Source of the DNA: Kondoa subrosea
Taxonomy: Eukaryota
Assembly: GCA_039545335.1 (NCBI GenBank)
Contig: BCIN01000006.1
Span: 1 to 64,000, forward strand
Reading direction: 5' to 3'
Length of the DNA stretch: 64,000 nucleotides
Positions 7,487 through 53,278 of this stretch are shown here, piece by piece. Within the stretch, counting starts at the first letter, position 1; each line of letters starts with the position of its first letter. A model generated the notes under the pieces. That model was given only the letters and a program-made list of their open reading frames with translations. It was not told the origin of the DNA and ran no database searches. A program made the position numbers and the translations under genes.

Positions 7487-9922
7487 ATGCCTGGTCAACC
7501 CAAGCAAGAATCAGTGCAGCCAACACGAGGCTTGTCTAGTAGTGCTCGCCCAGCTCGCCCGAAATTGATCATGCGGGCTGTGAGCTTTAAGGACGGCAAG
7601 GTTGCTGGGTTGCTGTTATGCTGATTGTTATCATGCAGCTACCGACACCGAATTCTTATAACATCACCTATTCGACTTTGAATAGTGAGCCTTTGTCCTC
7701 TCTGAAGAATTAGCGAGATTCAGATGATTGCTACAGCTCAGCTGGAGGCTGGAGATATCGATGCAAGCTTATATTTACTGCCAAACACACCGACTCTGAT
7801 CTCATCTCTTTCCAGCTCTCGGCAGATTATCAAAGAGATGGTTAGCTGCCCAGGAAAGACTAATTCGCTGGCTCTGTACTCATGCCTTACTCGACCAGTC
7901 GTATGGACAGAGTAAGTCTCTGTGCTAATATCGAGTATCATTACTAAGACAGGCTTGACAGAAAGAAACAGGTACCCAGCTTGCGATTCTTGCAACTACA
8001 GTACTGATGCGCATATTGTCTTTTAGGAAAGCTTGATCGAATCCATCTTTACAAATTGCTATGTTCCTCCTAGTGCGTAGATCCTTCCTCATTAATGAGC
8101 GCCACTTAGCAATCTGGCCAGTTCTCTTCGCTACACATATCGATCCAGCTGGAGATGAGAAACGTTTATGCATGGTTGGTGGATAACTTCACTGCATGTC
8201 GTATAGCTGATATCCAAATTCCAGGATGGCAAACAACGGCTTACTTCTGTCAACAACTTCCTTGCCGGTCGTATCGCGTACAATGGTACGTCTAGTCACA
8301 ATAGTTCTGACAGATAGAGCTCACTAATACACAGATCGCTTGACCGGAGATCGATGGTACATGCCTACCGGAAACAAAGTAATTGATGACGCTCGAGATA
8401 TATTGGATGCCAGATATCAAAAGCAATTCAACCTGCGAATTGCCAATGTGACAGAGTATAAAGATATCACTGATGAGGATCAGAGGTGAGCTAGCCTTAA
8501 TATGAGCCTTCTTTGAATCCTAATCCTTTGTGCATAAGGGATATCTTCGCGCGGTTGGGTCTTGCGCGCAATTACCGGGAAAGTGGATCTGATGCTTGCT
8601 TTAGTGTACAACTGGGAGAACCGCTGAAAGCTGGCGAGAAGCTTCAAGCTGGCGCTAACCATTATTCACGTTGGATTAAGGTTCGTATTCTGTCTTGTGA
8701 GTTTGCTGTAGCTGACAAGCTTGACATGCATAGGATATGTCTGACACACATGTCAAAAGCTCAGTAGGACGCATCATCTGCTTCATTCTGTTGGGGCTAA
8801 AGCTGTTCTATAGCTTGGCGCTGTTCGTCAAAATGGACTCGATGAGCGCGTATGCCCATTGGAAACAGGCAAAAGTGTAGGTCAAGGGGTCTGTGATGGT
8901 CAAGTCAAATTATTGATTCTCATCCAGTTTCTGCTTGTCGGGTATATTGCGGTTAATATTCTTGAAACTCGAGAAACTGGCAGACCTAAGTACACCACAC
9001 CTACCTCTCTGCAAAAGTTCCTAGCAGCAAAAGAAGAATATCCCAACCCTGAATACAAGATCGGTATGCTTTCATTCAGAATCGAGATCTTTGGCTGAGC
9101 TCGGAATGGTTAGCGGTTGAAAAGACGCTCTCCAAATTGGTTGAACTATCCATTATAGAGCGCGACGATCTCTCGTCTGAAGAAGAAACGCAACCGCAAA
9201 CTCAAGGCAGTCCCAAGAAAATGACTACTTCTGCTGTCAAGAAAGAACGCTTAAAGCAATATGCACCAGTTCCAGCTTGTCTCGTCAAATCTACGTCACT
9301 TGAACTGTCAATCTACGCTTTGTTCATATATTTGAATGATGATCTCACAAATGAACAGTATTTGGATGGTATAAGCAGCATTCGGAATAGTAGGGGTCAC
9401 AATCACTCGCACAATCTTGCGCTGATTTGAGCACATAGCAATCCGTGAAGAGAACAATGGCAAGCCAGTCCAACCAAAGAAGGCTTCATTCGAGGATGGT
9501 CTGAAAGTGGTATATGCATACAAACCTGGTCACGCCAATTCGGCAACAGCGACTGTCAGACCACCTCCGTCTACAGCTAACCTGACTAAGCGACTTCGTC
9601 CGTCTCAAGAAGAAGAGGAGGACGCCGCTTACGAACCGCCTGCCAGTCAAAGGCAATCGCAATCGCTTGTGAGATCAGCTTCAGTTTCAACCACAAGCAG
9701 TCAAACGAGAAGATCGCGAGCTACTTTAGGAAGAGCTAGTGTTTCGAACAACACGCCTGCTCGAGTGCATCAAGCTGAAGGGAGTCACTCGAACAAGAGG
9801 ATGAGGCAGTGAGTCATCTCACTCGAATAATCACCGTGAGATTGATCCGACTTCCTAGACAAGAACCTGTACCTCCAGCTGAAGAGGATGAGCTTGAACA
9901 AGATGATCTAACTGCCCTTTAA
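7487..9922 (+). CDS. DUF262 (ParB/Srx-like, GmrSD N-terminal type) domain protein, copy 1, multi-exon
   Basis: Spliced motifs: DYQRD|VVW (about 7825-7915), KKQ|ESLIESIFTNCYVPP, RLCM|DGKQRLTSVNNFL (8225-), DIFAR|VQLGEPLKAGEKLQA. Low-complexity tail ending DDLTAL*. Confidence 0.85.
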
Positions 9923-23632: not shown

Positions 23633-26021
23633 TTATCTCAATGGTCGACTTCCTCCAATCACTCGACCGCGAACAAAGACTGATCCAATGTTTCGATCGT
23701 CTCCCTGCACGCATAAATATCAGGGCATGTTGAGAGAAGCTTTAAGAAAACTCACAGCGAACATAAACTTTTCAAAGACTGTCGGTACATCGTCTTCTGC
23801 GTCAATGAACAGCGCCGGATTCAGGCCTTCCGGATACGGATCAGGTAGACTCTTGATGATGTCTTCCCAGCTGTTCTCTGGACCTTTCTTAGGTTTTGTG
23901 TCCTCGAAGGTCTTCTGTCCTGTTTGTACAAGCAGCTGACGGTTGCGAATTGAGCGTAATGAAGCGTAAAAAGCAGAAGGAGAAACTCACAGCATCAAAT
24001 TCCTTCCCAACAACGAAATTGCCAATTCTGTCCTCCAAACAGCAGACTTCTGCACCTCCGAGAGTTGCCAGGTAGAACAAAGTATCAAGCTGCAAATGCG
24101 AATCAGCAAACAATTCTTGTCCCTCTACTCTTGGCTTGGCTAAGCGCGTGGGAGTCACAGAACGATTGCGAGACTGAGACCGGGTGGGCGATTCCAGCCG
24201 ACTAGGAATATTAGCTGAAGCTTGCATGCTTAAGACCTTCGAGACGATACTTGCATCTCGAATTGTCGCCAAAATGGATAGAGCAAAGCCTCCAGATACA
24301 TCTGTTCCCAGACCGACCTTGAGGCCTCGATCAAGCATTTCGCCTACTCTTGTAACACCGCTGCGAAGATTGAAATTTGACCTGCGCACGCCTATCGCCA
24401 TCACACTCGTTTCAACAGCTCGCAGAGAAGAACGCACGTGGGACAGTGCGAGATGCCGGCGCCTCGCTCTTTGATCAACTCGATCTCTTCATCGTCAAGA
24501 TGCACGCAATGTGCTAGAATGGTATTGCTTTTCAGAAGGTCAAAGTGATCGTAGATTGCTGTATAGGATTTCGCGAAAGGGAAAAGAGATTTTGTAAAGG
24601 CGACTTCGCTCTGTTGTTTCAGCGCAGTTAGTGAGATCAATCGGTATTGCCAATTGTCTTACCTCGTTCTCGGACAAATGTCTGTCTCCGAGTGTCAGTC
24701 ACGAATCGCATGAGAAGGGAGAGAAACATACGTCTGTATATGCAATGTCTGATCTCTGGTTGCTATTGCGCCGAGAGAAGCGAGTAGAGCATCTGAACAG
24801 CTAATAGCAAAGCGAGGTGTCAAAATAGGATGAACCAAAGCTGTCTCTTCGTAGTCGGATGTATCTAGAGATGATGTACTGCTTGATACAGAGCCAGGAG
24901 TTAGAGGTATTTCTGTCGAGTCCTCGGGCAAAGTTGGTGCACAGCATTCAGCTCGAACATGCCGGATGAACTCTTTAGTATCCTCGATGCTCTTCGAGGC
25001 GGTCTTCTCTTGGTATTCGGGCACAGCATTCCGCTGAAAAGAGCACTTAGCGTCAGCAAGCAAGATTTTTGAACAACTAATGCCTGAAACATACATCCAT
25101 ACAGACTTTGCCAACAAAAGCCCGCTGTCCTTTGCGATGTATAATTGAAGCCAAAGCCTTTGTTGCGTCTGAGTGAGCGCCGTATGTAAGTAAAGTAAAG
25201 CAAAGGATTGAAGCCAACAAACCTAAATGAAGCGTCCCATAGTAGCAGCCTAAGCAGAAGATCAGTTCCGCTCACATTTACATCTAATGATAGAGAGCAG
25301 ACAGGTCTGCAGCTTTGTAAGAACCAGAAATGATAGGGCACAATCACTTACGGTTGTCCCAGCATTGATGATTCGCGTCACAACGCTCTCATATACTTTG
25401 TGAGCGTATGCAATGCTTTCAAACTTCTTCTCCTTTGGAAAAGTGACCTATCGCTATTGCCATCAGCGCAATCCCTTCCGCTCAGATCAGGCTAACATGA
25501 TGTAACCAATCAAGCAATTGATAATTCTGGCCATAGGCAAGGTTAGCATATTGAGGTGCGTGAGCTATCTTAAAGGCTCAGTTTTTCTTCTGCCTTCCGT
25601 GTCTCTACTTACTATGCGTGTCTATCAAGCTGATCCGAAAATCATATTCAGCGTCCAAAGAAGCCATTTCAAAAGACTTAACACTCACCCAGGCATCAAG
25701 AACTCGCCTAGACCGAGAGAAACAACGGAAGCATCTGACCATCCCAGCGCTTGTAATCGCTGAGAAACATTCGACCAAGCTATATCTGCTTCCACAAAGG
25801 ATATAACGCCTGACGAGTTGACACCTGATCCAATTCAGAATAAGCCATCTTTTGCCTGTGAAAGGTAGCAGAACCGACCCAACAAGCAGTTTTCCAAGAA
25901 CTCGGTGCTTCTAAGTCCAGTTGAGTGAATGACCGAGCCATAGAAGACACGCCGAGCCAGAGGCAGCTGAAGCAAAAGCAGTCAGTACGTTAGCGCTGTC
26001 GTATCAGCGACCTACATCCAT
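23633..26021 (-). CDS. GUD1: Guanine deaminase (amidohydrolase family)
   Basis: LIDTH, PILTPRFAISCS, ILAHCVHL, GISHCP, VGLGTDVSGG, LATLGGA, IGNFVVGKEFDA, GDDRNIGSVFVRG. The start codon is approximate. Confidence 0.92.
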
Positions 26022-26201: not shown

Positions 26202-29200
26202 TCAAGCTGCAGCGACCTTCGCGTGAGCTTCCGCGATATCCGCATTATCTGTTTCCGAATGCTTGTGAGCTAGATCTACATCGGAGCAGGACATACATAC
26301 CAATAGTAATAGATTTGGTGCAGTTGCTTGTTCTAGTAGCTGACAATCAGCGCATGTCACAATCTTCACGTAAGATACTGACTTATAAATGCCGACTAGT
26401 CTTGACGCAAGTTCAAACCTTCACAAGGTGTCAGTTCACAGGTCTGCTGCGGACATACAACTCACATATTGTTGCGTAACGAAATGACTTGGTAGAAAGC
26501 CATTAGCTGACTACAAAAGCCAAAGCGAAGAGCAGAACTCACTGATAAATTGAGCGTTCTTCGTTCTCTGCGAGATATAATTGGCCACTATACTGACATT
26601 ACGGAAATCCAGCGCAGCCTAGTAAACAGTATCAGTCTATATCGGCCCTATCATTGCCTGAACAAGCAAAGCATACGTCGATTTCGTCCCTATTGTCTGA
26701 TCAACATCGTCTTGGGGGAGCTAGACCACAGATATACGCACATGAAGTACAACGGAGTGGGTTTGAAGACATGTAGGGCGAATACCAAAGCTAGCGAGCT
26801 AAGTGTTTTTTCACCACCTGACAGGTTCGAGATGTGTTTCCAGGACTAATAGTTCCGGTTGTGTCAGCTTCAAGGAAGCGCAGATCATGATCACTTGCCT
26901 TCTTAGGAGGCATTACACTGAAGACGATTCCCTCGGAGAACGGGTCCAAACTATCGACCAATTCCAACTCCGCATTACCTCCTAGAGTAATCATCTGGGA
27001 CGGCATGTTAGGCAGCTGGTTGAGTCCTGAAAGACAAGACTTACTTGATACATTTCTTTGAGCTTAAGACTAATGATGGAAAAGCCGGCCATGAACTTCT
27101 CGAGCCGCTCCTTCCGCAAGTTCTCATAATGTTGCTTGGCATCATCGCGTTGCTGAGTAACGTCAGAGAGCTCCTTTGCTCGCTCTAGAAATTGCTTCTC
27201 GCGTTGTTGATACTCCTTGAGGACTTCGAGATTCGGTTTGGCCGCTTCGATCAATTCTGGCAAAACGGTCATTAGAATGACAGATCTGGTTGATCCCACT
27301 GAATGCACACCTTCCACGCGAGCAAGAACAGCCTTGAGTGCGTTCAGATCCATGTCTTCCAGTTCTTCTTCGGTATAATCCCTGAGTTCGACAACTTCTG
27401 GAGCAGTGTCTCCTTCAGGCCTATCGGCAGTCTCATCGTCATCATCCTCATCGATCTCTTGTAGCTGTAGCTCCTTCATACGCTTGTTGATACTGTCTAA
27501 AGCCTTTTGCTGTGCTGAAAGATCTGTTTCAAACTTCTTGAGAGCTTGTTCCAATTCGGCCTAACGAATATCAGCTATTTCAAAATGTGCTAGGCAAGTA
27601 CATACTTCAGCCTTGCGGAACCGCTGGATTTCAGTGTGCTTCTGTTCCAGCTCGCCTTTGAGTTCAGCTAATTCAGTCGTCTTTTCGGCGACCAGCTCTC
27701 TTGCTTCTTCAGTACTGGATCGGACAGTTTCAGCCGCTTCAGAGTTGACTTTGATTGATTTCATGAGCTCAGCAAGCTGTTCATCGGCTTCTTCTACCGC
27801 TGCTTTGTTGGTTTCTATCGCCTTGTCAAGCTTTACAATATCCTTATCGGCTTTGGCTGCTGCGACTTCGGCTTTGGTGAGACGATCAGAAGCATGATCA
27901 ATCCGTTCTTTCAGATCTTGGACTTTGCCTTGCTGAACACGAAGTTTTGTTCCACCGATAGCCAGGATTTGATCCTGGAAGCCTTGTATTGCTTCTTCTA
28001 TCGAGGCTGTTTGAGCTGTGAGCTTGAGCAGATCGTTATCGGCTTTTTTGATGGTGTCCTCCAATTCGGCTATTCTTTCGAGATCTCCTGCTTCAGGTTG
28101 CGCTTGTGCTCTAGAGAGCATGTTAGCAAGTAGAGAATGAAGTACCACTTGACTCACTGTAGATCGGCAATTCTCGCCTGTGTGTCTGTCAGACGTTGAT
28201 TTGCGCTTCTTATAGTCATTTCGGCTTTGCTGATTGCTGTTGCTAATTCACTTGGGCGCTTCTTGAGTTGTGCAATCTCAGCTTCAATCTCATCTTGACT
28301 TTCAACAACGACCTTGAGATCTCTGTCAGCCTTCTCGTGCTCTTTCTCCAATCGCGCAATATGCTCGGGCGAAACATCGTCTGCTGAAATCTGAGCACCC
28401 ATGAGACCTTTTGCAGGTCGAGATCCGCCCCCAGACATAGTACCCGATGTATCGATGAGTTCACCAGATAGTGTGACGACACGGAAGCGCTGTCTGCCAT
28501 AAGCAATCCGATTGGCTTGTTCAAGATCTTTTGCGACAAGCGTATTCTTCAAGAGTTGATAGAAGGCTGGAATGTATTTAGGATCTTTGGCCGTTATGAG
28601 ATCGAAAAGGCGAGGTACGTTATCGGGAGTTTCGATGGGATTGAGATTGTGCGTTTGAAGTTGAGATAAGCACATAATGACAGCACGACCAGACCTGCTA
28701 CGACGAAGGTGATCGAGACAAGCTTGGCCATCTTCTACAGTATCGCAAATGAGATTGTTGAGTTGCGGACAAGCCGTAGAAATAGCGACATCGTATTTTG
28801 GCTCGATTCTACCAAGATCGCCCAGTCGCCCCTGAAAAGATTGTCAGAGACTAGTCAGCGACGATTATGAGAAAATGCGCACATGGAAACCGCCCAGACG
28901 TCCCTGCTCTTTCAACTTGGTAAGATCTGCGAGAACTTTGGATTGTGATTTAGTAGCTTGTTGAGATGCTTTAGCTTCGTCCGCTTTAGCTCGAGCGGTC
29001 GATGCCTTCTTTTTGAGTTCATCGTTTTGCTTCTTGATGGTCTGTTTCAAAGAATGAGTTGCTTCCTGCAAAAGCGCTGAAAATGACTGACTTCAAGTTT
29101 GGAAACGGCAGCAGCCAGAGCCTTCTCGGCATTTTTCTTCTCAAGAGCAAGATCCGATAACTCAGACTGGCTGGTATCCCTTTGCTGTTTGAGTTTCGAG

Positions 29201-31861
29201 ACACTTGCTTGCGCTTCCTCGATAGATCGCGCAACTGACGTGACCCGCTCCTGCAATAGGTCCCGCTCACCGACAGCCACTGAGCGAGCTGCTTGTTTCT
29301 CTGATACTCTGGCCGCCCAAGGTTGCAATTCGGCTTGTTTGACTTCGATTTGAGCGGAAATATGCTCAGTTTTGCCTAGAACGGTTCCATCATTAGTGAC
29401 ATGTCAAGCAGTGAATCGTAGATTGCACCTTTCAAGCTATCGCGGACCTTATCCAGCTCAACCTCTTCTTGCTCTAGTTCCTTCTCGAGCTTAGCGATCT
29501 CTTTGCCGAATTTCTCAGAAGCAGCCTTGCTGTCGCGACTACTATTCAGAGCTTCAGAGCGTGTATGCGAGTCCTATTGTCTGCAGTGAGCAAAAGAACA
29601 GATTGCAATAAAATAAGCGATACATCGCTCAAAGTCTTTGCGGCCTTCTTCTGTTTAGCAGAAAAGTGTTTGCGTTGTTCCTGCATCTGAACTTCTTTCT
29701 TGTCAAAGACTGCCAATTCCTTTTCCAACGCTTTCGAAGCCGTTTCAATTTCCTTGCATTCTTTTCAGCATGATGGATGTCAGTAGCCAAGTAAGACGTA
29801 CCTTCAGTTCCGCTTCTGCTTCAGTATATATAGCTTGGTGCTCTTCGTACTCTTGCTTGACACCAGCATTCTTCTTCTGTTCCTCTTCTAGCTGAGTAGC
29901 GGCTTCCGTCTATAGAGAAGATTCAGTACCAAGCGGTAGCACAGCGAAAATCGGAGGCCGTACCATATTACTGTTCAGAGCCTCCACATTCTGCTGAGTT
30001 GTCCACCTATAATGCTGGTAAAGCTTGGATTGAAGGATAGCTTTCTCATTCAAGTTCTTCAGGTATTCATCAGCTTCCTTCTTTCGTCCCTATAGATCGA
30101 TTTGTGAGCAAGAGGTATACGACCGGAAAACGAAACCTACTTCAAGGTTCTTCTTCTCCTTTTCGACGAGCTTCACGCGGGCCAATTTCTCACCTCGTTC
30201 TTCGTTCAAGCGATCTACATCTTCCAAAGCTTTCTCGATAGGTCCCTTGAGCTGTAACAGCAAAGAGCGAGTGAGGGAACGACTTGGAACCTAGGTAGAC
30301 CATTGCTTACATCTGATGTTCCGATGATATCTTCAAGATATTCTAGCAAACCATCTTCGTGCTCTGTAGCTCCTTTTGGCTTCATCTGAGCAATACTCTC
30401 TACCTCACCCTGTTTCGTATGACAAGAGAGAGATCAGTGAACTTTACAAGTTGCCAAGACGAGACACAAACCTGCAGGATCAAGAATCGATTATGATCCA
30501 AATCGATTCCCTTTTCTTTGAACAAGGTGACTACCTCAGTGAAATTACTGCTTCTGCTGTTGATCGTATATTTGGACTTGTTGTCTTTGAAAGCTTGACG
30601 CGAGACGACAAGATTCGAGCCTGGTACAACATCATAGAGTCCGTCTCCCGGCTAGCGATATCTCTGAATAAAGGTCAACGTCCATGTATGAAAGCACCTA
30701 CAAGGTCGATGATCTCGCGGAAGTGCTATAGGCAAAAGTCAACTGAGAGCTGAAGGGTGGAAGTACATTGAACTGACGACTTCGACTGCACAATAATCCA
30801 GATTCATTTTGCCTTCAGAATTGTGAATCAATTCACTGAGCTACGAGTCTAGCGATGAGCACTTTCGCAGACTTGATGATAGGTGAGGACTGGCTCACCT
30901 TGCCCTGCCTCATCTTGGAAGCTCGATAACCGAAAACAAAGAGTAAAGCGTCGATAGTATTCGATTTGCCTGATCCATTAGGACCAACGATAGCAGAGAA
31001 GGAAGAATGGAAAGGACCGATTTCAACTCGACCAGCATAAGATTTGAAATTGATCAAAACGATCTTGTGAATGACTAGTCTGGCTTTAGGTTTTTCAGGT
31101 TCTCTATTCTTCGGTGGTAAATAGATAGGTTCAGGAGTTGCTTCTGTTGTAGTTGCAGGCTCTTGAGTAGGATCAGCAACGGCCGGAGTTCCGCTAAGAG
31201 AGGGAGAAGCTAAAGGAGGAGTCTTTGCTTCCTGTTCTTCTGCAGCATCTGATTGAGAATTAGAGTCAGAGTTATTTTCTTCAGCTTCAGGTTCGACAGC
31301 AGATGGATCGACATGTTCTTGCTTGACTACAAATTCTTGTTGAACAGCTTGAGCGGATGTGGGCTCGTCATCCTCATCACTATCGACCTCTGGTACTGCT
31401 TCTGGTACTGGTATAGGTGCAGGTTTGCTTTTTGGTGCTCGTCGACTGGTTGATTTACGCGCTGGAGCAGCTCTTCTCTTTGGCGCAGGCTTCTCCTCTT
31501 CCACTTCTGAGTCCTCCTGATCATCTTGCTCTTCCTCAGCCTCTGATTCTGATTCCTGGACTACAGCTTTTGCTGGTTTGCGTACAGAGTTACGAGCAGT
31601 CGGTTTTGATCGCATTGTAGGCTTCACATCGCTTTCTTGCTCTTGATCAACATGCTCCTCATCCTCCTCCTGCTCAGATTCAGATTCTGGTATCACCGGT
31701 GCTTTCTTTCGTGTATTTCGACCAGCAGCTTTAGCTGGAACTCGCTTGGCTGGTTTTACTTCTTCCTCTTCCTCCTGCTCCGAGCTTTCAGGTGTAGGCA
31801 CTTTAGTAGGCTTCTTGGAAGTGCTCGAAGCAGTAGAAGCACGCGTTCCTCGAGGCGGCAT
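26202..31861 (-). CDS. SMC4: Condensin subunit SMC4
   Basis: INFKSYAG...[30 protein letters not shown], hinge ([20 protein letters not shown]), [36 protein letters not shown]. Confidence 0.97.
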
Positions 31862-31983
31862 GATTGTTTCGCGACGAAAGAGGTTCGAAAACTAAAAGTA
31901 AACAAGACATGGAAATCACCTCGAGAGCCCCAAATGTGTCAGCATACATTACAGCTGGTTACTAAGTACTGTGGGAAGTATGA

Positions 31984-37435: not shown

Positions 37436-39765
37436 TTAGAGAATTGTACATGAGCTGAGAGTGATACATTGCAAGTGGTGTAAGCATAAGGATATGAACA
37501 TGAAAGGATATCGAAGATGTTGGTCTTGAAGAGCAGTGAAGTCGTCCTCATCCATCGGTGTGGATTGATGAGTTTGCCTGAATTGTACTCAGCGTCCGAT
37601 TTTAATCGATAATCAGACTCACTGTCTCAGGCGCTTGCTAGAAGGCTGAGAAGAAGCTCCTTCGGTACCAGACTTGTGAGGAGTTTGCTGAGATCCTTCT
37701 GGTCGAGAGCATCGTGGACGCTTGTTTGAGCGAGTAGACAGAGATTCGATCAATGAAAGCAGAGTAGCGAAAGTTTTTGCTGAAGCTCGAAAAGTCTTGT
37801 CACCGAGATCTTGTCTCATGGCTGTTTTGAAAATGTCAGCTAGCTTCTTTGGTATCAAGTTGGGGCTCACTATGACGCATGGTTTCGAAAGCATCAAGAT
37901 ACTGCTCGTTGGTCCAACCTTCATTCTTGACTGTTCCATGATCAATCAGAAAAGGATGTATTTGAGCTGGATTACTCACAAATGAAATAAGTCCAGAGAC
38001 AAAGTTCCATTCCTGTGACTTTCTTGGAGCAATCTGGAACTGGAGCAAGTTGCTTCAAACGAGCAGCTCGACTACCCTTCTTAGGCGTTTTGGTATTCTT
38101 AGCAGTCTCTGCTTCGCTTTCTGCCTCATCTTCTTCGGCGATAGACAGATCAACCAGCTTAGACAAAGCATCATCGACAGCTGCCAAGGGAGATGAGAGA
38201 GAATACTGGCATCCGGAATGCGTGCTTACCAGTTTTGAAGGCTTCGGACGGCTGTTCTTTTCGCTCCTGAAAGGTTTTCTGGATTGCAACAGTTGTATGA
38301 TACTTGACGGAGTTGCCCTCCCACTCCTCCAAGATAGCTAAAGCAGCTGCAGCGACTAGTACATACTGTATGAGCAGATGTGAGTTCTCGCTTGAAAGCT
38401 TCTGACCGATGGCTTACATCGCTGCCTCGATCAAGTTGGGCTACTCGATCGTGCAAACCATTTTTTACAGAAGGCATAAGCTATTCCGGACTGCTCGGTA
38501 CGAGAAATTCATGCTGTCTGAGATTGACATACCGTAGTAGAGATGTGAGTTCGAGCAAGCTCCTCGATCCACTTGGAATAGCCATCACTAGAGGCTTGTA
38601 GCTTTTCGCCAGCTTTGAGAGGTTCGCCGAGTTGAACTCTGTGGCAGAGTCTTCAGCTCAATTTGGAGAATTCGAAATAGTATGACTATACCGAGCAAAA
38701 ATATCACTATCAAACAGTTCAATTAACGCAAGGTGAAATTAGAGAAAACACGCTTACCGCTGATCAAGATCGCTAATATCGTTGTATTCTGTCACCGCAA
38801 TGGCCTTACTCTGTTCTCGCGTCAGATGTGCTAACACTGTCTGATGCACTGAGATTACCTTGAACAACCTTCACGACCAGTGATACTTCTCAGCTATAAT
38901 CCGCCTCGTAAGGAAAGCGAAGCACCTGACATATCGGATTTCCAGAACATTTCTTTTCTCGTCGATTTCTTTTTCGCCAGATGGCACATACCAACGCGCA
39001 CCAGAAAGCTTGTCTGTGGATGATACGTATGATTGATAAGCAAGCATGATTTCAACACATGAGATCACCAACTACTGACCGACATAGGCAATCTCAGAGT
39101 CAAGAAAACGAGCAATAGAAGTCAATCGCCTAAATCAGACATAATAGACATGAGCGAACCAAAAGATACTACTAGAGAGGTTCTTGACGCACTGTTTGCC
39201 ATCCATACAAATTCTCGATTCAGACCCGTCGGTTTCTTGGTCCACCGCAAAGAGAACCGGAGGGATATAGATGTCTTTGAGATGACAGATCAAAAATTAG
39301 CGAGAGTCACTCTCGAGAGATGCCTGTGCCCAGCAAGAAAAGCCTACTTTGAAAGATTGAGTCGATTAGAGCTTCCTGTTTCTTGTCTTCGAATAGCATG
39401 GATGAGCAGTATACAGGGCGCTCGATTGATTTACTGACCATTCCAGACTACTTCTCTCTGATAGGCAGCATCCAAATCAATCAATTCCTCGCTGATCAAT
39501 GCTATACGGCACTCGATGAGTCCAATCTCCCGAAGACAGCACGAGAACAAACTATGCAGTTCAGCACAGGTAGCAGTAGTAAAGAGAGGTTTGGCGAGCT
39601 GTTGTGTGCATAAGTAAGAGACCCTTGAGCGCAAGAATTGGGCGTTACAGCCTGTATGACCAATTTCGGGACATTGGGTGTGACAGCAATAGAAGCATCC
39701 TCTTGCGTAGGGGCCTCTTCTCTCTCACTGGTAGGCTGCTTGACCTTAGTAGCGGAGCGCTTCAT
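37436..39765 (-). CDS. DUF262 domain protein, copy 2 (close paralog of copy 1)
   Basis: IDLDAAYQREVVWN (about 39440-39480), KKQEALIDSIFQ, RICMDGKQ|RLTSIARFL, DIFAR|VQLGEPLKAGEKLQA, RLKQLAPVP, TNEQYLD. Confidence 0.85.
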
Positions 39766-39978
39766 CGTAGTTGAAGACAAAGGACAGACGCCAAAATCAA
39801 TTGTCTCTGAGTATCTGCGTAAGCGCATCGCAACGCGTCGTGAACATCTCAATGCGAGTTTCCGTTCGTCGTTCATGCAAGTCTATCCACAAAAGGAGGA
39901 AGTAGAATGATATTCCATTCAGATATGAGTATAAAATATAAGGTCATGATATATCAGCGGCTCATCCTGTCCGGCGCT

Positions 39979-42383
39979 TCAAACAGTCACAATCCGGCCA
40001 TTGATAGCTTTAGCATAAAGCTGAAGAGCATCAGGAAGCGAATTTTGAGATATCAACTGGATCAGCTTACTTTATCATTTTTGTAGAAGATCCAATCCGA
40101 GGGAGGAAGCTTCTCGGGTGTGCCGTATTTGTGTAAGAATGAGTCGATTGAAGGAGAGCTATGGGCACGTTTGCAGAGCTTGTTGGCTTGATGGTAGTGG
40201 CAACTATTTGAAGAACAACATCAGTTGGCAGCCAACAACACATGAAACCGCCTCCTCACTCGCCCAGAATATAGAATATGCAAGCTTCGTTCGGCCAGTG
40301 AGGAGGCACATGTCTATAGCGGCCATGGACATTGTATTCGTCGATAATCTTGCCTGGCGAAGATACTCTCTGGGCTGATGAACTCAACGCATGCGATGTG
40401 TTTTTGGTCAGATTCTTGGGACCAGTTGGTATGGGCAGCTGTAAGGCATTGAACGCTTCTTGATGACTAAAGCATTGCAAATAGAGTAAGTACCTGCTTG
40501 AGAATATTAACTTTTGCCTACTTCTCCGTTGGAGCTTTCCCAATTCGATCAAAAAGAGCCGTCGCTCTGCCTCTTATCGAAAACGCGTCGGGTTTCACAT
40601 TCGAAGATGTACTTTCTACATAAGCAGCGTCTGGTATTGAAACACGCTTTTCTAATGGTGTTGCACATAGAGGTTTGCTTTCCATCGGATGAGTGGACGT
40701 GCGCGCCTCCTGATCCTTTGCGCTCTGCATCAGCACATCTTTCAGAAGAGCTTCCCAAGCATCGTCATGAGCAGCAGTATCGTTGACTTGGACTGTTTCT
40801 ACGCGTTCCGTTGAGACGGAAACATTACTCTCGGAGCTGTTGTCTTCAACCGATAGTATTTCCACGTCTCCCCAAGGACTCTTAGTCGGCTTCTTATTAT
40901 CGCGAATCTTGAATTCACATGATGCATCTATTTCGCTGCTTGAATCAAGCCTTCGTCTTTTGTTGATGGAGTCATCGGATGCTGCTTCTAATGTTCGTTT
41001 ACTGCCAGGACTGACGGCAGAAGGTTCGATGATAGGTGGGCGAGCTTCAGCTGAAGTTTCCACTGAGATCCGGCTACATCCAATGTTAACTAAACGAGCG
41101 GATCTTTTCCTAGCGAACGCACTTGACGATCTTCACCAAAAAGGTCCATGCTTCATCTGTCCTGGGTATATCTGCCGTGTACCTTTCGCCTACTTCTAGT
41201 CTGAAAAACCTAATTGCATTTCGCAGTACGTCGTCGGTTAGATGCTGGAGCTTGTGCATGAGATAAGGGAGAATGATGAATTCCATAGCGCGAAGGATGC
41301 TAGGATTGTTGAAAACGGGGTGAGTGGCCTCTGTTTCCGCACTCCGGACGATCGATCCAGGTCGCATGTCTAGAGATAGTTTCCCGATACGATCACTGCG
41401 GTGCACAGTATCAGAATCAGTAACGCTACATGGTATCGTACGCACAGTATACGTATAGCCAAAGCTATGGTGCTTCCCAAGTCTACCTGAGAGCTACTCG
41501 AGTCTAGCCATACTGAGAGATCAACCAGATCGAAAGGACCACAAGTAAGCTGATCTTGAAGAAGATTGAGAGATCTTATGATGTATGCAAAGATGATGAA
41601 GAGCTCGGTCTGCGAGGCAGGAGGTAAAAAGCGATGGAAAGTGACTGATGGCCGACCAAAGCTGTCTACAGGCTGGAGATATTGCTTCATCATTTCATGG
41701 ACCATTTGAGCAGTGTCTGAGTCTGAACAGGCTAGCTTTTCCGCAGCTGACAAAGGTGAAGAGCAATTCGACCTAAGGAATATTTCCCTTTCTTGCTGGG
41801 AAGACAGGTTTGGGTATTCGCAGATAGCAATTTCAAGCTGACAAAAAGTCTGAAGATCCATTGTGGACAGCACAAGAATCTCGTTTCTAAAGATTGGCTT
41901 GGAGCCGCGATTTGCTGAAATACGTGTGCATTTTCAGCACAAAGATGGAGAGCTGATACATTCACTAACTCATATCAAGGAAAGAGCGTAGAGTCTGCAA
42001 GCGTTGCGTCCCATCGATAATCCTACGCGATCCATCTTCATTGGAAGCTCTGTTTCGATTTCAGTACTATTTAGTCAGAGCCATTCAGCTGGTAGACCAA
42101 CAATACGATCGGAGCAATCTAGAGGAGAAATATCAGAGGCGGGCTGACAAAGGCCAGACTCGTTATACATACGTGCTCATAGCCTTCGCCAATACAATGG
42201 ATGTAAAGTGCTTGTGCTTCAGCTGACCATTGTGACTCTCTCTCAAAGAGCCTGGGACTATTGCACCTGCAAGCAGCTGGTCATAGATGTTTTGCACAGA
42301 AAGTCGCTCGCAACGAGATTTGGGCAAAGGCTGACAAGGATGATCAGCATGCGAAACAAGCTGAATACACGACTGCAGACCAT
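39979..42383 (-). CDS. Divergent DUF262 protein with C-terminal CCCH zinc finger, copy 3 (apparent frameshift near 42250)
   Basis: NIYDQL, FERESQWSAEAQALYI, IIDGTQRLQTLRSFL (about 42000), EREIFLRSN; C-terminal PPHWPNEACIFYILGD|CHYHQANKLCKRAH. Confidence 0.72.
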
Positions 42384-42644
42384 AATTCGAGCTTTAGAAC
42401 CGTCTGTGTTTGGCCTGTGGCTTATGTCTGCAGATATTCAGACTTCCAAAATCTAGAAATGTTGTTTTAGAGATCACGCTAGGTCTTCTGCTGCAACACT
42501 CTTGTATCGCGAGGACAGAGTGAGTGATGCTACACGCGTGCGCTGGTATGATCCTCTAGAAGTAATATCGTTGTTGCATGAAGCAAGACAATCATTACAT
42601 AATCTGAATCCGAATATGAACATGGCAATTCGATCGAAGAATAG

Positions 42645-45499
42645 CTACAATACGAGTATGTTCTCATTTACATCCACGTAAGCGCACTTGATTTCGTCTT
42701 TGAACCAACACCATCGTCCTTGCAACATCCGAGGTTGACCGAAGTACGCAAGATATACGTCCAGCTCTCTTGATCTCCCATGGTATCTATCGCATTTGAA
42801 GCCTCTGTTGCAATCCTTGGAGTAATCAAACCAACTATGGCGCAAGATAATGAAGCTTCAGCGCAAAACGATCTCGGAACAGAGCTCTGAATGGCTTACC
42901 AAGAGTCAAAAGGCCAATACGGAGGGAATCTGTTACCCCCTTTGCGATCAACAGAGCCAATAACGAGACCCTTTTTCAGAGCTGCCGGGTTTGGCCATGG
43001 CCAAGGAGGATCAGAATGTCTATGGCCCGGCGTGACAGCTGTTGGCGGCGCTGGGACGAAATTGGTACTAGAAGTAGGTTGCGGTCTTTCAAAAGTCGAT
43101 GTATTTATAGCAGGAGAAATAGGTCGATGTTGAGGCCAAGCTGTCGGCAAGGCGTTTCCTAGCTGTGAAGAGCTTGAGCAGCCGGGTATCTTGAACTCCT
43201 GTCTTCCATTGCCTGGCACATTGCTCTCAAGAGATGCAGATCTGCCAGTTGGTTGCACATTGACTCCTTCAGGTCCTCTCTTGCTACCTTGACCCAAAGC
43301 CGCTTGTGCATTTGAGCCTTCTGCTAGTATAGGATCTGGCACGAAGGAATTGATCGGTGAAGGTGATCTGCGAAAACTGAGAATTCCTGAATTGGCAGCA
43401 GAGTCTGGTCGTGAGGTGTTTTGCACCGGAGTAGACTGGGATCGAGCATCGCCTAGAGATCCGTGTCGCGTGAAATTGGGAAGTTCTCGTATCAAAGACG
43501 TAGGTGACGCCGCGAAGCCAACACTTCTAGCGGGCTGCGGTGCTGCAAAAGAAGCATTCTGCATTGCTTTCGACCTATCAGGCGATCCTGTAGCAGGTTC
43601 GACCACTGCGCTACTTGATTGGGTACTGATAGGCTGCAAAGCGTTCTGCGGTGAAGGGAATTTGCGGGGATCAAGAGAGGGCAGCGACGCTTGCAAAGGA
43701 GAAGTGTGACGCGAAGAGGGTTGCTGAAGCGATGCTTGCCTTCGAGGATCCACTGTAGGAGATTGTTGCTTGCTGCGCATGATGTTGGGAGACAAGGTCG
43801 ACTCAGCTGAAGAGATTCTTGAATGAGCTTCTGTGAGAGTCGGACTAGCTGCGACTGTGTTCGCTTGAGCCAGATCAGAGTTCGGAGGTATAAAGGTGTT
43901 AGAAGCAGGCGAAGGCGAAACATCATGGATAGACATAGGCGCAGGTGATTCTGATTTGACCGATTCATGTCTGGGTCGCTTGTAGCTAGTAGATCTGTTC
44001 AGTATTGTCCGAGCTGGACGTTTGAGCCCTCTTGATGATGTTGAAGAGGCCGCGTTAGAGACATATGTTCCTGTCATTTGCGTTGCGCTGATGGATCTAT
44101 AGGAGAATTTGAGCTGGACGTGACTGCTGTAGAATAATAACAGATAACTGACTCGATGATGATCTTCAGGGCGTTCCAGGTATGGAAACTGTACGAGAAG
44201 CCTTCTGGATACGTGCTAGATGCATTGCGCCGAAAAACTTCGACAGCTTCCCGAAGCAATCCCTTTTCCAGAGATCGGTGGACGTGTAGCAAATATGGTA
44301 GTAGAATAAATTCAATAGAAGATAGAAGACCGCCATTGGTGATGCACGAATGGACAGGCAAATGCTCCTCTTGAAGGTCATGTTTACCATGCTCAGGGAC
44401 AGAAAGTTGATTAAGATGATCCCTGTTAACATGCAGTCATCCTGTTGAAGCAAAGGACTTCATCCAGCAGAAGAACAACTTACAACGTCTGCCGAGAGAT
44501 TTGCACTACTTGTTCGCTCACTTCTTCTGCTGAATTTAGCCAATCATCGAGACTGTCGTCGTCGACGAAAGCGTAAGTTCCATTGACTGTCAGATTCTCC
44601 ATAGCTTTCAAGACTCTAGCCCAAGCGGTATGAACATAACTGTTGGGTTTGATCACAGCGAAAGCGAGAAGTCGGTCATAAGTAGGAGATGGACCAATGT
44701 AGTTTGGATAGGTGCTATTGCAGATTCTATTGAGGCAGGAGCTGTGCAATAGAAGATGATAGCTTACTATTCTTCCCTCCTGATCAACAGCTTCAGCAAA
44801 AGCGATGACACAGCGCACCGAGAACACTCACATCTGATTTATATAAGACGTGACAGGACCAAAAGAAAGACCGCTCCGAACCTCAGCTCGAGACAGGCTC
44901 AAGTGAATATTGGATCGCTGGAAAATTACAGCCTCGTCTTCCTCTGAAAGGTCATCATAATTGACTACTCTGATGGGAATCTTTTGGAAGATTTCGCGTT
45001 GAGATTGAGGGAGTACACGCCGATCGGGTGAAGATTGGCCGGGGGAAGAAAAATAGAAATAGTTCACATCGAAAGAGTCTTTAACAGGAATTTGACCAGT
45101 CATGAAGGCTTGAATAGCTAGCAGTCTTTGCTTTCCATCGATGACCAGACCGTGTAGAACGCCCTTCTCTGTTTGCCCTGAGCTTCTGCTTGTGTCTTCA
45201 GCCAAGCAGCCTACTGCAGAGTACTTCAACTAACATTACGATAGGTGCGACATGCTGGAAACGCCTGAAAAGACTGTTGATGTACGAAGATTGCTGCTCA
45301 GGGCTCCAATCTGAATCTATTCGCATTTGCCCAAAACGGGTTCATCAAAATACAACGACGAAATTGGCTCATCGAGCTCACCTCTGGTAAAAGGAAAGGA
45401 AATCTCATTATTCTGCAACTGATCGTACAGCTCAGACAGGAATGGAGAGCCAGGCGTGCCAGCAGGCAAGCATTCAAGTTGAAATTCGTGTCCAGACAT
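42645..45499 (-). CDS. Divergent DUF262 protein with C-terminal CCCH zinc finger, copy 4
   Basis: ELYDQL...PFTR|DSDWSPEQQSSYINSLF, VIDGKQRLLAIQAFM (about 45100-45145), EAVIFQRSN, long Ser/Pro linker, PPYWPFDSC|WFDYSKDCNRGFKCDRYH. Confidence 0.8.
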
Positions 45500-48780: not shown

Positions 48781-50523
48781 TCACAGAACCAAACCAGCAG
48801 TCTTCAGCTGTTTCTTCAGCAAGACTGAAAGAATGGCTTCAGCATACATAATTGCGCATCAGAAGATCCCAACCGTACAAGCTGTGATATCATTTATGCA
48901 TTTCTTCATCCCACTCGAATCGCTGAATTGGATTTGATCAGCTTGGCAAAGTAGCTAGAGATTAGACTCACGTAGCCTGAGTAAAATGACAGAAGAAGTT
49001 GGACTTATTCTCTTCTTTGACCACAGCGAGAAACTTCTTTCGAAAGAATCGTTTGACTTGTTCATAATCTATATCGGAGCCTGTCAGGTCGAACGGCCTT
49101 TTAGCTCAATATTGAGCACTCAAACTACCTCAAACTGACCTTCATAGTCTGGAAAGTACTGCTTTACGGAAGCTTTCGGTAGTTTCTCCTTTAGCTGAAA
49201 GAAGCTTCAGCTTGAAAGAAAAAGCAATACACAAAAATGAAACTGACGAGATCGACTTTGTTCAAGAAAAGAATATGTGCAGACTTTGCAAACAACTTAG
49301 AGTTCACACTGTGAGCGGAGCAAAGCAGAAAATAAGTATTAGGAATGCTTGTAACATAATGACTAACACCGAGTCGTACACTACGAAAAACAGATCAGCT
49401 TGACAGTAAGAGCACAAGAGACTGCGGGTATACCTTCTAAGGCTTCTTCTATCCTAGGCTTGTTTGCATCTTCCCTTATCCGTTGATCGTATTCCGATAT
49501 TGAAGCGATAAAAAGCAGAACGTCGACATTCTCGAAGCCTATAAGCAAATCAGAGGTATCGAGAAGTGTGTTCGATGCTCATACAATGAATCCTGTCAGG
49601 GACCGAGTCAGAATAGAATGTTTGAAACAAGGTCAGAGACAAACTAACCATTTTCGCCTTTCTGATCTCTGGCCGCCGCAATCAAAGACATGCAGTTTCA
49701 GACCGCCAACATCTGGGAAGAAGACTTCTACTATTCCTCTATTCAAATGAACGAATGGGCATTGCAATTCATGGCTGTACAGACAAAACATACGTTGTCT
49801 TTATTCGGGATTTGATGATGTCCATATCAGTTGGAATGTAATGATAGTCTTCCTTGTCCACAAAGCGATCGATCCTTTCGATAAAGTACGTTGCGCTAGT
49901 GAAACTGGCGATGAGCCTCGGCATCCGAGTGTCAAGTAAATGCTAACCTGTCATTCAGCTGATACTCACTTCTCCGCGATATTGCCAACTGTACAGCCGT
50001 CTCTTTATATAGGATTGATATAGCTTTAGCCGTCTCATCGTCCAAATGATCTACTGTATCTTCTCTTCCGCGATCTTGCAACAAGCGAGCGTACTCTTGA
50101 CTAACGGAATCTGATAACTTGATGCCCATGATATCCATAGCGTCGAGAATACATTGCATAGATTGAAGTGTGTTGGCTAGAACGACTTCTCGATATTCAG
50201 CTCGTTCTGCTTCTGGTAGTGGGCCAAGATGCATGAATCGCATTTGTTTCAGCACAGTGGATCTATCTAAATCTATCAGACATTCTCCACCGTTTCCTGT
50301 TTACACCTACTTTCCAGATTCCCCGGCTCCAAGAAGTAAAGTTTTGATTACTATATTGAAGTCGCGTCAGATTGGATCTCGATTAAGCAGGACAAATCTT
50401 ACCCGTCTTCTGCTGTAACGCATCCTGCTTGAGCTTCTCATCTATACTGCGACTTCTTTTTGCAGGAGTAAGTGTTAGACTTTGTGTGTCTTCGGCCAAA
50501 TCTTTCGATGCTATACAACCCAT
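48781..50523 (-). CDS. Heterotrimeric G-protein alpha subunit (copy 1)
   Basis: MGC N-terminus, LLLGAGESGK|STVLKQM, SRIKTT, DCGGQRSERRKW, FLNKVD. Confidence 0.92.
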
Positions 50524-50970: not shown

Positions 50971-53278
50971 CTAAATCTACCCGTATCAATTTTAAGAAGC
51001 GTGCAGTAGGTTTTTGCAAACAACTTACGAGACCGGTGATTTCCAGGTGGTATTTAACCAGAGCTGCAAAGCTTTGATTTAGCCAAGCCTTAAACTGGGG
51101 CATCAAGAGAGCATACTGTCTGTTACCGCAGTGATGACCTTGCTCATTGCAGTTGTATCCCTAATGCATGTTCAGCTTGTACCTCTGTCAACGGAACAGA
51201 TGAGCTTACGTTGCGGATGTAAAACTGCAAGATCGTCAGAACAGATCGACCGCCATACTGTGAAGGCAAGAGACACTGACTGTACATAGATTTGGCGTTC
51301 CTTCTGCATCATTAAAAGCATATCAATACCAAATACACATCGGAACAGATGAAGCTCACGTCTTGTACTAGTCCGGTAAACATTTTTCGGAAGAAGCGAG
51401 CTACTTGATCGAAGTCTTGCGGATCGCCTGTGCTTGGAAAGTGAGACGGATATACAATGGTGTATATAATAGACGAACCGTTGTACTCTGGAAAATACTT
51501 TTGTAACGGTGATTTCGGCAGCTTTTCACGTAACTGAAGATACTACTTTCAGTAGCTTCAGTGGCTGATGTGCGAATGGACTGACCAGATCACACTTGTT
51601 CAAGAAGAGCTACGCCTGTTGTCAGAGACTATCCGGCCGAAATCAAGGCAAACATACTATTTGAGCACTCTTTGCGAACCACTTGCTGTTCACACTACAA
51701 GGTCTTCAGTCAGATGAGGAATGAAGAGCAGAGGGAGGAAGTACATGGCTTCATATACTGCGAGTACGAAGAAACTTTCCCAATGAGCAATATCTCACCG
51801 GGTGCTAGTTCAACTCACCCAGTAAAGCTTCCGCTATTCGTGGATGTTCCGTATCTTCGCGCTTGATCAAATGTTCAGACTAACCCTATCAAATTGAAAA
51901 ATACACATACCAAAGTCATATCATACTCTGCTATACTGACCAAGAACAGCATAACATTGACATCTTGGAAGCCTTTCAACAAAATCAGTTATGGAAATGA
52001 CGCGCTTCGAGAATTCGCACAATGTATCCCTGTGAGAGCAATTCCTCTGCATCAGCAATCATACTGCACGACGCAAAAGGAAACCCACATTTCTTTCGTT
52101 CCGATCTCTGTCCGCCAACGTCTAGAACTCTGAAAGGCATTCCTCCACTATTGCTGCTCATCAGGCAAAATCCTAAGTAAGGGCACAAGGCTTACACATT
52201 CGGGAAGAAGACTTCGACAATTCCGCTACAAGCCATATTTAGTTGGTTTCTTCCTTAGGATAAAGCACGCACGTAGTCTTGATTCTCGCTTTGATGATAT
52301 CCATATCGCTTGGAATATAGCGATATTCTGGAGGATGATCAACGAATCGATCCACGCTGTCGAAGAAGTACGTTGCGCTGTAGAATACATCCAAATGTCC
52401 TCAGCCTTCCATAAGGCTAAGATTGACAGCATGACCTACCTATCATTCAGTTGATACTCATTCGTCCTGCTTATCGCAATCTGAACAGCTTCTTGCTCTT
52501 TCAATACCTTCACAGCGTTCTTGAGTCTTTCGTCAAAGATCGCGCTACCCACATCTCTAGAAAGACTTTGTAGAAGAGTAGCGTATTCTAAAGCTGTTGG
52601 ATCAGTGATTTTCAGCTCCATCCATTCTGCTGCATCGAGAATGGATTGCATGGATTGAATAGTGTTGGTGAAGATGATTTCTTTGTATTCGATCCGTTCG
52701 TGTTCAGGTAGACCTCCGAGATGGATCAGCTGTGCCAGGCACACGCGATCAATTAAGCTCATGAGCTTTAACAATCTTGCGAAGCCGCACCTTCATTTGC
52801 TTCAGTACAGTAGATCTGTACGGACGGAATTCAGTAAGCTCTAGCGAGCGCAATGAATCCATCTACGTACTTTCCAGATTCTCCTACGCTTACCAAATCA
52901 GTATCGTTCGACCGTATCAAGAGGAAGTCAAGACGAACCAGCACCAAGCATGAGCACTATATCTTTAAATGAGTATCTCGCACTTTATCACGGGCTGAAT
53001 GACATTACTCTTGATAACTAGCCGTTCCGTTAAATTCAGCTCATTTTTGACAGCCCTTGTCTAAAAACTCACCTTTTCTTTCTTTCTGACCATCTCTTTT
53101 CAACTCGGCATCCCTGTACGAAGCAAACAGCACTAAGCAAACTTTTCCGCATAAACGTGAGCGGGAATTGGGGGATGTGCACGGACAAGCGTTTAGAGTG
53201 CTTCGAAGGATCTAAAACTGTTGTACTACTGCTCGAATTGCTAGTAGCTATCTGCTCTTTAGAAGGATTGCAGCCCAT
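50971..53278 (-). CDS. Heterotrimeric G-protein alpha subunit (copy 2)
   Basis: MGC N-terminus, VLMLGAG..ESGK, ARIKTT, DVGGQRSERKK, HFTSATDT. Confidence 0.9.

Follow-up and report, generated by a model that had tools for sequence, protein, structure and literature searches.

Nuclease-less DUF262 genes in Kondoa subrosea, probably a small paralog family of 'sensor-only' proteins

Described DUF262 systems and the fungal proteins

DUF262 is the sensor and NTPase (nucleoside triphosphatase) half of several bacterial anti-phage systems, and a nuclease-less form of it is conserved across fungal phyla. Here we describe four DUF262 genes, denoted A to D, in a 64,000-nucleotide stretch of Kondoa subrosea (contig BCIN01000006.1, positions 1 to 64,000; hereafter the window), where A, B and C stand in tandem on the minus strand and D stands separately on the plus strand. 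An initial annotation, made from the sequence of the window, had recognised these genes and proposed an immune-type locus. Considering the comparisons below, we take A to D to be fungal DUF262 proteins of a nuclease-less, 'sensor-only' type that form a small paralog family, and not a recognisable defence system, with a probability of roughly 0.6.

In an excerpt of Li et al. 2025 (PMC12065111), NsnA is described as a ParB-DUF262 domain joined to a helical DNA-binding 'ParBDB' domain, which is common to GmrSD, SspE and DndB, and it is proposed as the sensor of the three-gene Menshen system. The same excerpt names the DUF262 motifs QRxxxW (I), DGxQR (II) and FxxxN (III), and motif I is placed beside the substrate groove. 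According to the excerpted part of a review (PMC10952713), Menshen, Dazbog and PD-T4-2 have DUF262 without DUF1524, BrxU shifts between dimer and monomer upon nucleoside triphosphate (NTP) binding, and the NTPase activity of SspE triggers a conformational change.

When seven fungal relatives were scanned with PADLOC, NsnA (PDLC03877) was the best profile for all seven, five of them at 1e-20 to 4.4e-24 and the others at 2e-13 and 1.3e-05. PD-T4-2_A was second, and the GmrSD-like HEC-05/06 models were far weaker. The NsnA match in the relative P0007 covered profile positions 41-348 of 385, and exon 3 of gene A matched NsnA at 3.7e-8. The window itself gave just this A exon and generic ATPase (Walker-A) matches inside a hinge-bearing SMC gene; NsnB and NsnC were absent from the PADLOC scan of 92 window open reading frames (ORFs), from which small or heavily spliced genes could escape. 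The fungal proteins resemble NsnA in that a ParB-DUF262 domain is followed by a helical ParBDB-type domain, with the same three motifs and no DUF1524. While Menshen is a three-gene operon of NsnA, the ABC ATPase NsnB (DUF3696) and the effector NsnC, those partners are not in the window, and the fungal genes are intron-rich, nuclear and vertically inherited. The fungal proteins also differ from NsnA in their long disordered S/P/R-rich tails with basic motifs, and in motif II being DGKQR and motif III being FxxxQ in most fungal members. Judged by profiles and motifs, the fungal family is most like an NsnA-type sensor module and is not a member of Menshen.

In the case of GmrSD, BrxU and SspE (PDB 7P9K, 6JIV), the likeness is structural, with BrxU being the top match in both Foldseek and VIA-align for the model of a fungal relative, P0082. 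BrxU is an NTP-responsive dimer (PMC10952713, in the excerpt), and a dimer was also predicted for P0082. However, the C-terminal DUF1524 HNH nuclease that defines these enzymes is missing from the fungal family, in the relatives and window ORFs scanned, and the absence of an HNH/DUF1524 partner given in the initial annotation was thereby confirmed. With the CTP-dependent DNA clamps ParB, Noc and KorB, the fungal proteins share the N-terminal nucleotide-binding fold and a symmetric N-domain dimer, as predicted for P0082, whereas they have no helix-turn-helix DNA-binding domain, a helical BrxU-like domain follows the fold, and the motif set is different. We know of no parS-like site or partition partner for the fungal family. 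Nothing in NCBIfam scored above cut-off; TIGR00180 reached 16.4 bits against a cut-off of 58.45 in one of eight queries and did not appear in the others. The fungal proteins deposited as 'GmrSD N-terminal domain-containing' or 'hypothetical' belong to the same family as A-D, with core, tails and motifs in common, but A and B are altered relative to them at positions at least 90% conserved in 104 relatives.

Family membership, fold and predicted dimer

The gene models were built by hand from three-frame displays, exons were joined by coordinate, and splice sites, frame and stops were checked by script (Table 1). The four DUF262 genes lie where the initial annotation had placed them, and its limits for the array were exact to the base; in the spliced models, 37436 is the stop codon of C and 45499 is the ATG of A. 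Open spliced models were obtained for A, C and D, whereas B is not intact, having no ATG and carrying a frame break. In gene A, the core takes up about 340 aa, and the 398-aa tail after it is rich in S and P and bears a KRPR motif. In gene D, a 10-nt micro-exon (7962-7971, plus strand) was required to restore the conserved VVWTEKKQESLIESIF stretch, which in gene C is coded without a micro-exon split. GC donors are required in three introns of the models, namely 7763 in D (gcaagc), 39599 in C (gctcgc) and 42081 in B (gctctg), and the GC intron of C matches a GT intron of D in position and phase. The last exons of C (37436-37577) and D (9859-9922) are both small, lie after a phase-2 intron behind KR(L/M)RQ and encode an acidic DD[F/L]TAL motif. 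Because a loose regular expression for this motif matched the tails of just one of 255 database relatives, it is not a feature of the family.

The spliced models carry the motifs FTRDSDW, DGKQRL and IFQRSN in A, FERESQW, DGTQRL and IFLRSN in B, YQREVVW, DGKQRL and IFARVQ in C, and YQRDVVW, DGKQRL and IFARVQ in D. Motif II, the nucleotide-binding centre, is therefore of the DGxQR form throughout, as DGKQR in A, C and D and DGTQR in B. Motif I is complete in C and D, while A (TRDSDW) and B (ERESQW) keep its R and W and lose the Q that is present in 103 of 104 relatives. Motif III reads FQRSN in A and FLRSN in B, and the FARVQ of C and D is a variant that 101 of 104 fungal relatives share. The statement of the initial annotation that each gene has all three motifs thus stood in canonical form for C and D, and for A and B with the motif I Q replaced by T and E, respectively.

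When 150 database relatives were compared with the window by tblastn, all 542 high-scoring segment pairs at E<=1e-3 fell within the A-D loci, and therefore the count of four in the window is correct at that sensitivity. Against Pfam PF03235 (gathering cut-off 33.2 bits), for which the window was tested as unspliced ORF pieces, a piece of A at 44831-45229 matched with E 0.0011 and 19.5 bits, below the cut-off, and none of the other unspliced pieces of A-D reached E<=1. Exon 3 of A had 28 of 30 neighbours in the PF03235 set of the ESM Atlas (top score 0.95), and a phmmer search of 1.84 billion representatives with it returned 253 proteins at E<=1e-3, the best at 1.2e-15 and 38% identity. Word-indexed homologue searches with the A exon and the C-terminal D exon gave nothing at E<=1e-3, which is weak evidence. 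In P0001, the top phmmer match of the A exon, about 238 residues of the DUF262 region are repeated within the protein, which is probably an artefact of assembly or of the gene model; P0001 was excluded from alignments and trees.

Pfam was then applied to 120 of the 150 listed relatives, with the other 30 left out. The PF03235 cut-off was passed by 113 of the 120 (37/40 and 76/80); among the other seven, two matched PF03235 below the cut-off and five gave low-complexity false matches or none. A family hidden Markov model (HMM) built from 104 Pfam-verified relatives was searched with the spliced models (Z = 20000), and it scored D at 278.5 bits (E 1.6e-82), C at 270.4 bits (E 4.5e-80), A at 157.9 bits (E 5.8e-46) and B, with an X at the break, at 110.4 bits (E 1.4e-31). 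The alignments of all four models span the whole conserved core of about 345 positions. On these comparisons, the DUF262 family call for A-D is as safe as can be reached short of Pfam on the spliced proteins, and chance is far exceeded.

The fold and the dimer were modelled on the relative P0082 (Coprinopsis marcescibilis, 426 aa), which is 35-44% identical to C and D. The AlphaFold2 model had a mean predicted local distance difference test score (pLDDT) of 86.1 and turned disordered after about residue 385. Foldseek placed BrxU first (7p9k, 2e-4), with ParB-N domains, Noc, SspE and sulfiredoxin ranking next. With VIA-align, residues 48-384 of the model aligned on chain residues 3-425 of the 557 of BrxU (Z 8.8, 302 residues), and further matches were ParB with CDP (6sdk; Z 8.3, root-mean-square deviation (rmsd) 2.7 Å over 96 residues), 7bm8 (Z 7.8) and human sulfiredoxin with ATP (3cyi; Z 6.8, rmsd 3.3 over 96 residues). 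By the calibration of the tool, such Z values are intermediate, yet the matches are consistent and lie above unrelated helical rows (Z ~4). The DUF1524 nuclease domain of BrxU presumably begins where the P0082 alignment stops, after chain residue 425. As modelled, P0082 is a DUF262 domain of ParB/Srx fold with the helical middle domain of BrxU and without the nuclease domain. A search of PDB sequences with the family profile found no chain at E<=0.01, and the structural relatives came from fold comparison alone. The assignment to DUF262/GmrSD_N with a ParB/Srx fold in the initial annotation was borne out, the former by family HMM values of 1e-31 to 1e-82 and the latter by the P0082 model.

Beyond DUF262, Pfam assigned no domain, be it DUF1524, HNH or another, to any of the 120 relatives scanned. 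In precomputed domain assignments for the best 120 rows to the family profile, DUF1524 is likewise absent; only three rows carry an extra domain, an amidohydrolase or NIPA domain, and these look like merged neighbouring gene models.

For two copies of P0082 residues 40-390, the dimer prediction scored 0.46, compared with 0.00 for the best of three controls, with contact agreement of at least 62% between runs and partner pLDDT of at least 77; among proteins with solved structures, 21 of 30 pairs and none of 23 single chains attained the mark used. The predicted interface (41-50, 90-99, 116, 170-174 and 190-194) forms a face of the N-terminal domain. Its positions 96, 191 and 194 are near-invariant in the family and altered in both A and B, which suggests, as far as the model holds, that the A/B lineage no longer pairs with the canonical copies.

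The tails following the core have a median length of 159 aa across the family (range 0-750) and are rich in S, P, A and R. In tails of at least 30 aa, a loose basic-motif expression matched 207 of 230 and an RGG-like pattern matched 60 of 230. Those of A, B, C and D are 398, 177, 79 and 137 aa long, respectively, each with a KRxR-type motif.

Relationships among the four copies and the state of gene B

Identity is 47.5% between C and D (385 aa compared) and 27% between A and B (354 aa), and it lies at 23-28% when A or B is compared with C or D. The initial annotation was thus right in noting local expansion with strong divergence. In a careful maximum-likelihood tree (41 rows, LG+C20 PMSF), C grouped with D (100/100) and A with B (100/99). 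The end branches of A and B were 1.8 and 2.6 changes per column, respectively, against a median of 0.74, and the amino-acid composition of A departed from that of the family. Placing A-D in one clade cost 0.47 log-likelihood units (approximately unbiased test, p-AU 0.459) and was not rejected. An origin of all four copies inside the source lineage is therefore allowed by the tree test, which does not show it. The pair of C and D fell in an unresolved basidiomycete polytomy; a position beside Pucciniomycotina rows, seen with FastTree, was not upheld by the careful tree.

To define a conserved set, we took the 32 positions with a conservation of at least 90% among 104 relatives, in P0082 numbering. 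C keeps 28 and D 29 of them, while A keeps 22 and B 17, and changes are shared by A and B at nine (Y71F, Q72T/E, V76D/Q, P96A, F100M/L, C114V/I, V191S, Q192N and G194H/S). The eight fully invariant residues are all kept in A, including those of DGKQR, and seven are kept in B. Introns are consistent with the grouping: C and D have 10 positions in common, most introns are lost in A, A and B share one position and phase missing from C and D, and two introns of B match C and D in phase and, to within one or two alignment columns, in position. Because of the nine shared substitutions and the shared intron position, the pairing of A with B cannot be put down to long-branch attraction alone.

Gene B, the sister of A, is damaged. 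A 2-nt frame break at 42252-42251 lies upstream of motif I, an in-frame ATG was not found in the model, and the model requires a 46-nt GC-AG intron with a poor donor. When the break is filled with an X, the upstream piece aligns in the family HMM with the conserved N-terminal segment of the family, and therefore the break sits inside the domain. Long exons of 154, 82 and 185 codons nevertheless remain open in B. Gene B is probably a young pseudogene or else the victim of an assembly indel, with the odds about two to one for a pseudogene.

In terms of annotation, the relatives are named 'hypothetical protein' or, in UniRef, 'GmrSD restriction endonucleases N-terminal domain-containing protein', which agrees with the earlier statement that fungal homologues are just hypothetical proteins; examples are TFK28924.1 of Coprinopsis marcescibilis, KAF7976870.1 of Athelia sp. 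and KAH8923668.1 of Atractiella rhizophila. An organism name is attached to 107 of the best 120 rows to the family profile, and 91 species were counted, 14 of them at least twice; the genera of all 107 are ones that we take to be Agaricomycetes. One Coprinopsis species has four rows among these 120, three of them on contigs of equal length, and other mushrooms have 2-4 copies per genome. Relatives were also found in Ascomycota (Dendryphion, Lophium, Xylona, Rhizina, Choiromyces and Saitoella), Mucoromycota (Hesseltinella), Ustilaginomycotina (Violaceomyces and Sympodiomycopsis) and Pucciniomycotina (Atractiella, twice, and Leucosporidium); four of these lineages were checked. Among the rows retrieved, the closest are about 44% identical to C or D and 38% identical to the core of A. 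The maximum-likelihood tree groups rows by taxon across fungal phyla, with two Agaricomycetes subgroups supported at 100/99 and 93/96; from this grouping of sequences, the history of the family is one of vertical descent with occasional duplication and not of patchy transfer. A literature search, which did not extend to subscription journals and supplements, found no paper dealing with fungal DUF262 proteins. The excerpt of PMC4619093 gives three eukaryotes among 613 organisms with complete genomes, with no mention of fungi in that excerpt, and PMC5406856, as excerpted, just lists a shiitake marker in a 'DUF262' gene.

Readings of the locus and its surroundings

In architecture, each protein joins a DUF262 domain of ParB/Srx fold to a helical domain, the counterpart of the BrxU/SspE middle domain and of ParBDB in NsnA, and ends in a disordered tail that is rich in S, P and R and carries a basic KRxR-type motif. 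The DGKQR pocket, together with QRxxxW and FxxxQ/N, would bind and probably hydrolyse NTP. The N-terminal domains may form a symmetric dimer, and the helical domain and basic tail may hold nucleic acid in the nucleus. By analogy with BrxU, SspE and ParB, the nucleotide state could toggle pairing and binding. Because there is no catalytic nuclease, the output would pass through other, unlinked factors. C and D presumably retain an ancestral, conserved job, while A and B would have arisen by duplication, with motif I and the predicted dimer face altered before the two split. A, being intact, may have taken a new role or may be drifting, and B would be dead or dying.

Several points weigh against the reading of A-D as a family of nuclease-less sensor-type proteins. 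The exon models are all hand-made, and three of the introns need GC-AG sites. Family membership was established through the HMM of the relatives in place of PF03235 on the spliced proteins themselves. The fold and the dimer rest on P0082 and not on the proteins of the window, and the dimer prediction may owe its success to solved ParB or BrxU dimers that the tool had already learned. The expression used for nuclear localization signals is crude, and frequent chance matches are expected in R/K-rich disorder. The branches of A and B are very long, and fast change of a tandem pair is also expected of a gene in conflict. The frame break in B could be an assembly error. Finally, our literature search found no biochemical work on any fungal member.

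A rival reading is a role in genome defence or nucleic-acid surveillance. The proteins would then be sensors of modified or foreign DNA or RNA, from a mycovirus, a transposon or incoming nuclei, similarly to NsnA, GmrS and SspE, with an unlinked effector and with A and B diversified. The nearest PADLOC profiles, NsnA and then PD-T4-2_A, both come from systems without DUF1524 (PMC10952713, in the excerpt), and the nearest characterised relatives are all phage-DNA sensors; the locus is a tandem array with very fast-evolving copies, one of them decaying, and the changes in A and B hit motif I, which the excerpt of PMC12065111 places beside the substrate groove. However, the window scans revealed no effector or transducer gene within 64 kb. 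With Pfam applied to ORFs of at least 85 aa across the window and to the D region, no nuclease, NACHT, HET, TIR or similar immune domain was found in the window ORFs, nor any match to DUF1524/HNH (PF07510); OLD-type, TOPRIM, PIN and BECR domains were also absent from these scans, from which small or heavily spliced genes could escape. The DUF262 cluster is surrounded by an ordinary core genome, with housekeeping neighbours that include the ammonium transporter, CDP-diacylglycerol synthase, SMC, HDAC and G-alpha genes. Members of the family occur widely in fungi, and the tree follows taxonomy, with two conserved subgroups among the Agaricomycetes, as would fit vertical descent of a cellular function. 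In C and D, the NTP pocket is retained, as are 28-29 of the 32 conserved positions. A defence role thus seems improbable to us. A stronger form of it, in which an NTP-gated sensor of the NsnA/GmrS type, older than the split of Mucoromycota and Dikarya and descended from anti-phage sensing, lost its nuclease and gained nuclear tails, and in which A and B were retuned into a working array of sensors for foreign or modified nucleic acid with an unlinked effector, is quite improbable. The immune-type locus proposed in the initial annotation is unsupported rather than refuted, given the housekeeping neighbours, the lack of an effector or partner nearby, the taxonomy-following tree, the multiple copies in other mushrooms and the broken B. 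Plain birth-and-death of duplicates would account at least equally well for a tandem pair that evolves fast and decays.

Carried further, birth-and-death would mean that only C and D, or one of them, function and that A and B are relics of tandem duplication whose divergence is decay, which we regard as rather unlikely, though worth serious thought. The missing ATG and frame break of B agree with it, as does the loss of 10 of 32 near-invariant residues in A and 15 of 32 in B, including the motif I Q. In addition, phmmer found no relative above 38% identity to the core of A among the 1.84 billion representatives, and the amino-acid make-up of A is unlike that of the family. On the other hand, A keeps an uninterrupted frame of 757 codons in six exons with canonical splice sites, retains every invariant family residue and aligns across the whole 345-position core (2.4e-43), and the open exons of B are unlikely in long-dead DNA ((61/64)^187 ~1e-4). 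It is very improbable that the proteins are instead enzymes of the sulfiredoxin or ParB-nuclease kind, performing ATP-dependent phosphotransfer on a protein or small molecule, or cutting DNA, and are not switches. While the N-terminal domain of P0082 superposes on sulfiredoxin with ATP (3cyi), fold and profile comparisons both rank DUF262 sensors and ParB CTPase domains above Srx, no Srx or ParB family model passes its cut-off, and the helical ParBDB-like domain and basic tails point to binding of nucleic acid.

Taken together, the locus is an ordinary cluster of paralogs, correctly recognised by the initial annotation, of an automatically annotated and uncharacterised family. That family combines an intact nucleotide pocket with a predicted dimer and nuclear-type tails, and once the nucleotide and the nucleic acid that its members read were identified, the outcome would be either a new eukaryotic NTP-gated DNA/RNA switch or a further instance of bacterial immune parts reused in eukaryotes. 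The locus offers a natural comparison for this, because it sets the canonical pair C and D beside A, which is intact but altered in motif I and the dimer face, and the decaying B.

Table 1. Features of the window, with positions counted from its first letter; neighbouring genes were named from Pfam matches
Feature	Position	Strand	Description
Retroelement integrase	2305-3291	minus	open 329-aa ORF with Integrase_H2C2 and rve (Pfam)
ATP11, then α/β-hydrolase	between integrase and gene D		Pfam
Gene D	7487..9922	plus	18 exons, 517 aa; introns 49-59 nt, one GC-AG (donor 7763)
CHCH protein, HLH factor, Sec7 guanine-nucleotide exchange factor, Arb2/HDAC gene	in that order after D		Pfam
Amidohydrolase	23892-24658	minus	Pfam; 13 kb from C, 14 kb from D
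SMC gene	27564-31891	minus	SMC_N and hinge (Pfam); ~5.5 kb from C
Cgr1 gene	between SMC gene and ammonium transporter		Pfam
Ammonium transporter	34.9-36.5 kb		Pfam; next before genes C, B, A
Gene C	39765..37436	minus	15 exons, 485 aa; introns 45-120 nt, one GC-AG (donor 39599)
Gene B	~42393..40518	minus	open spliced core 42250..40518, 481 codons; sister of A
Gene B core exons	42250-42173, 42118-42082, 42035-41970, 41914-41453, 41369-41123, 41073-40518	minus	model
Gene B upstream homologous piece	42393-42253	minus	different frame from core
Gene A	45499..42896	minus	6 exons, 757 aa, predicted; introns GT-AG, 56-90 nt; no internal stop
Gene A exons	45499-45382, 45316-45225, 45166-44832, 44741-44484, 44422-44153, 44096-42896	minus	model
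Gene A exon 3	45166-44832	minus	112 aa; motif II DGKQRL and motif III IFQRSN
CDP-diacylglycerol synthase	46.4-48.6 kb		Pfam; next after gene A
G-alpha fragment	49935-50300	minus	PF00503, E 2.7e-16
G-alpha fragment	52439-52792	minus	PF00503, E 8.1e-11
Exo_endo_phos protein	last in listed order, after G-alpha genes		Pfam

The window is eukaryotic and intron-rich, with about 46% G+C, and its composition shows no break at the DUF262 locus. A search for DNA repeats between 36.5 and 46.5 kb gave just two short pairs, at chance level, and a recent duplication of the array has left no trace at the DNA level. Since a gene with a ParB fold, C, lies close to the SMC gene, a functional link of the ParB-SMC type was considered. 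It was rejected and taken as coincidence, because Cgr1 and the ammonium transporter intervene and the hinge-bearing SMC gene resembles the usual eukaryotic kind.

The 329-aa integrase ORF, close to the left end of the window, represents a retrotransposon integrase remnant or copy. The two G-alpha fragments, about 2.5 kb apart, resemble a tandem pair of G-alpha genes. In P0207 of Mycena chlorophos, an amidohydrolase/guanine-deaminase is fused to PF03235, probably as two merged neighbour genes, and the amidohydrolase gene of the window together with this fusion could be a remnant of old synteny.

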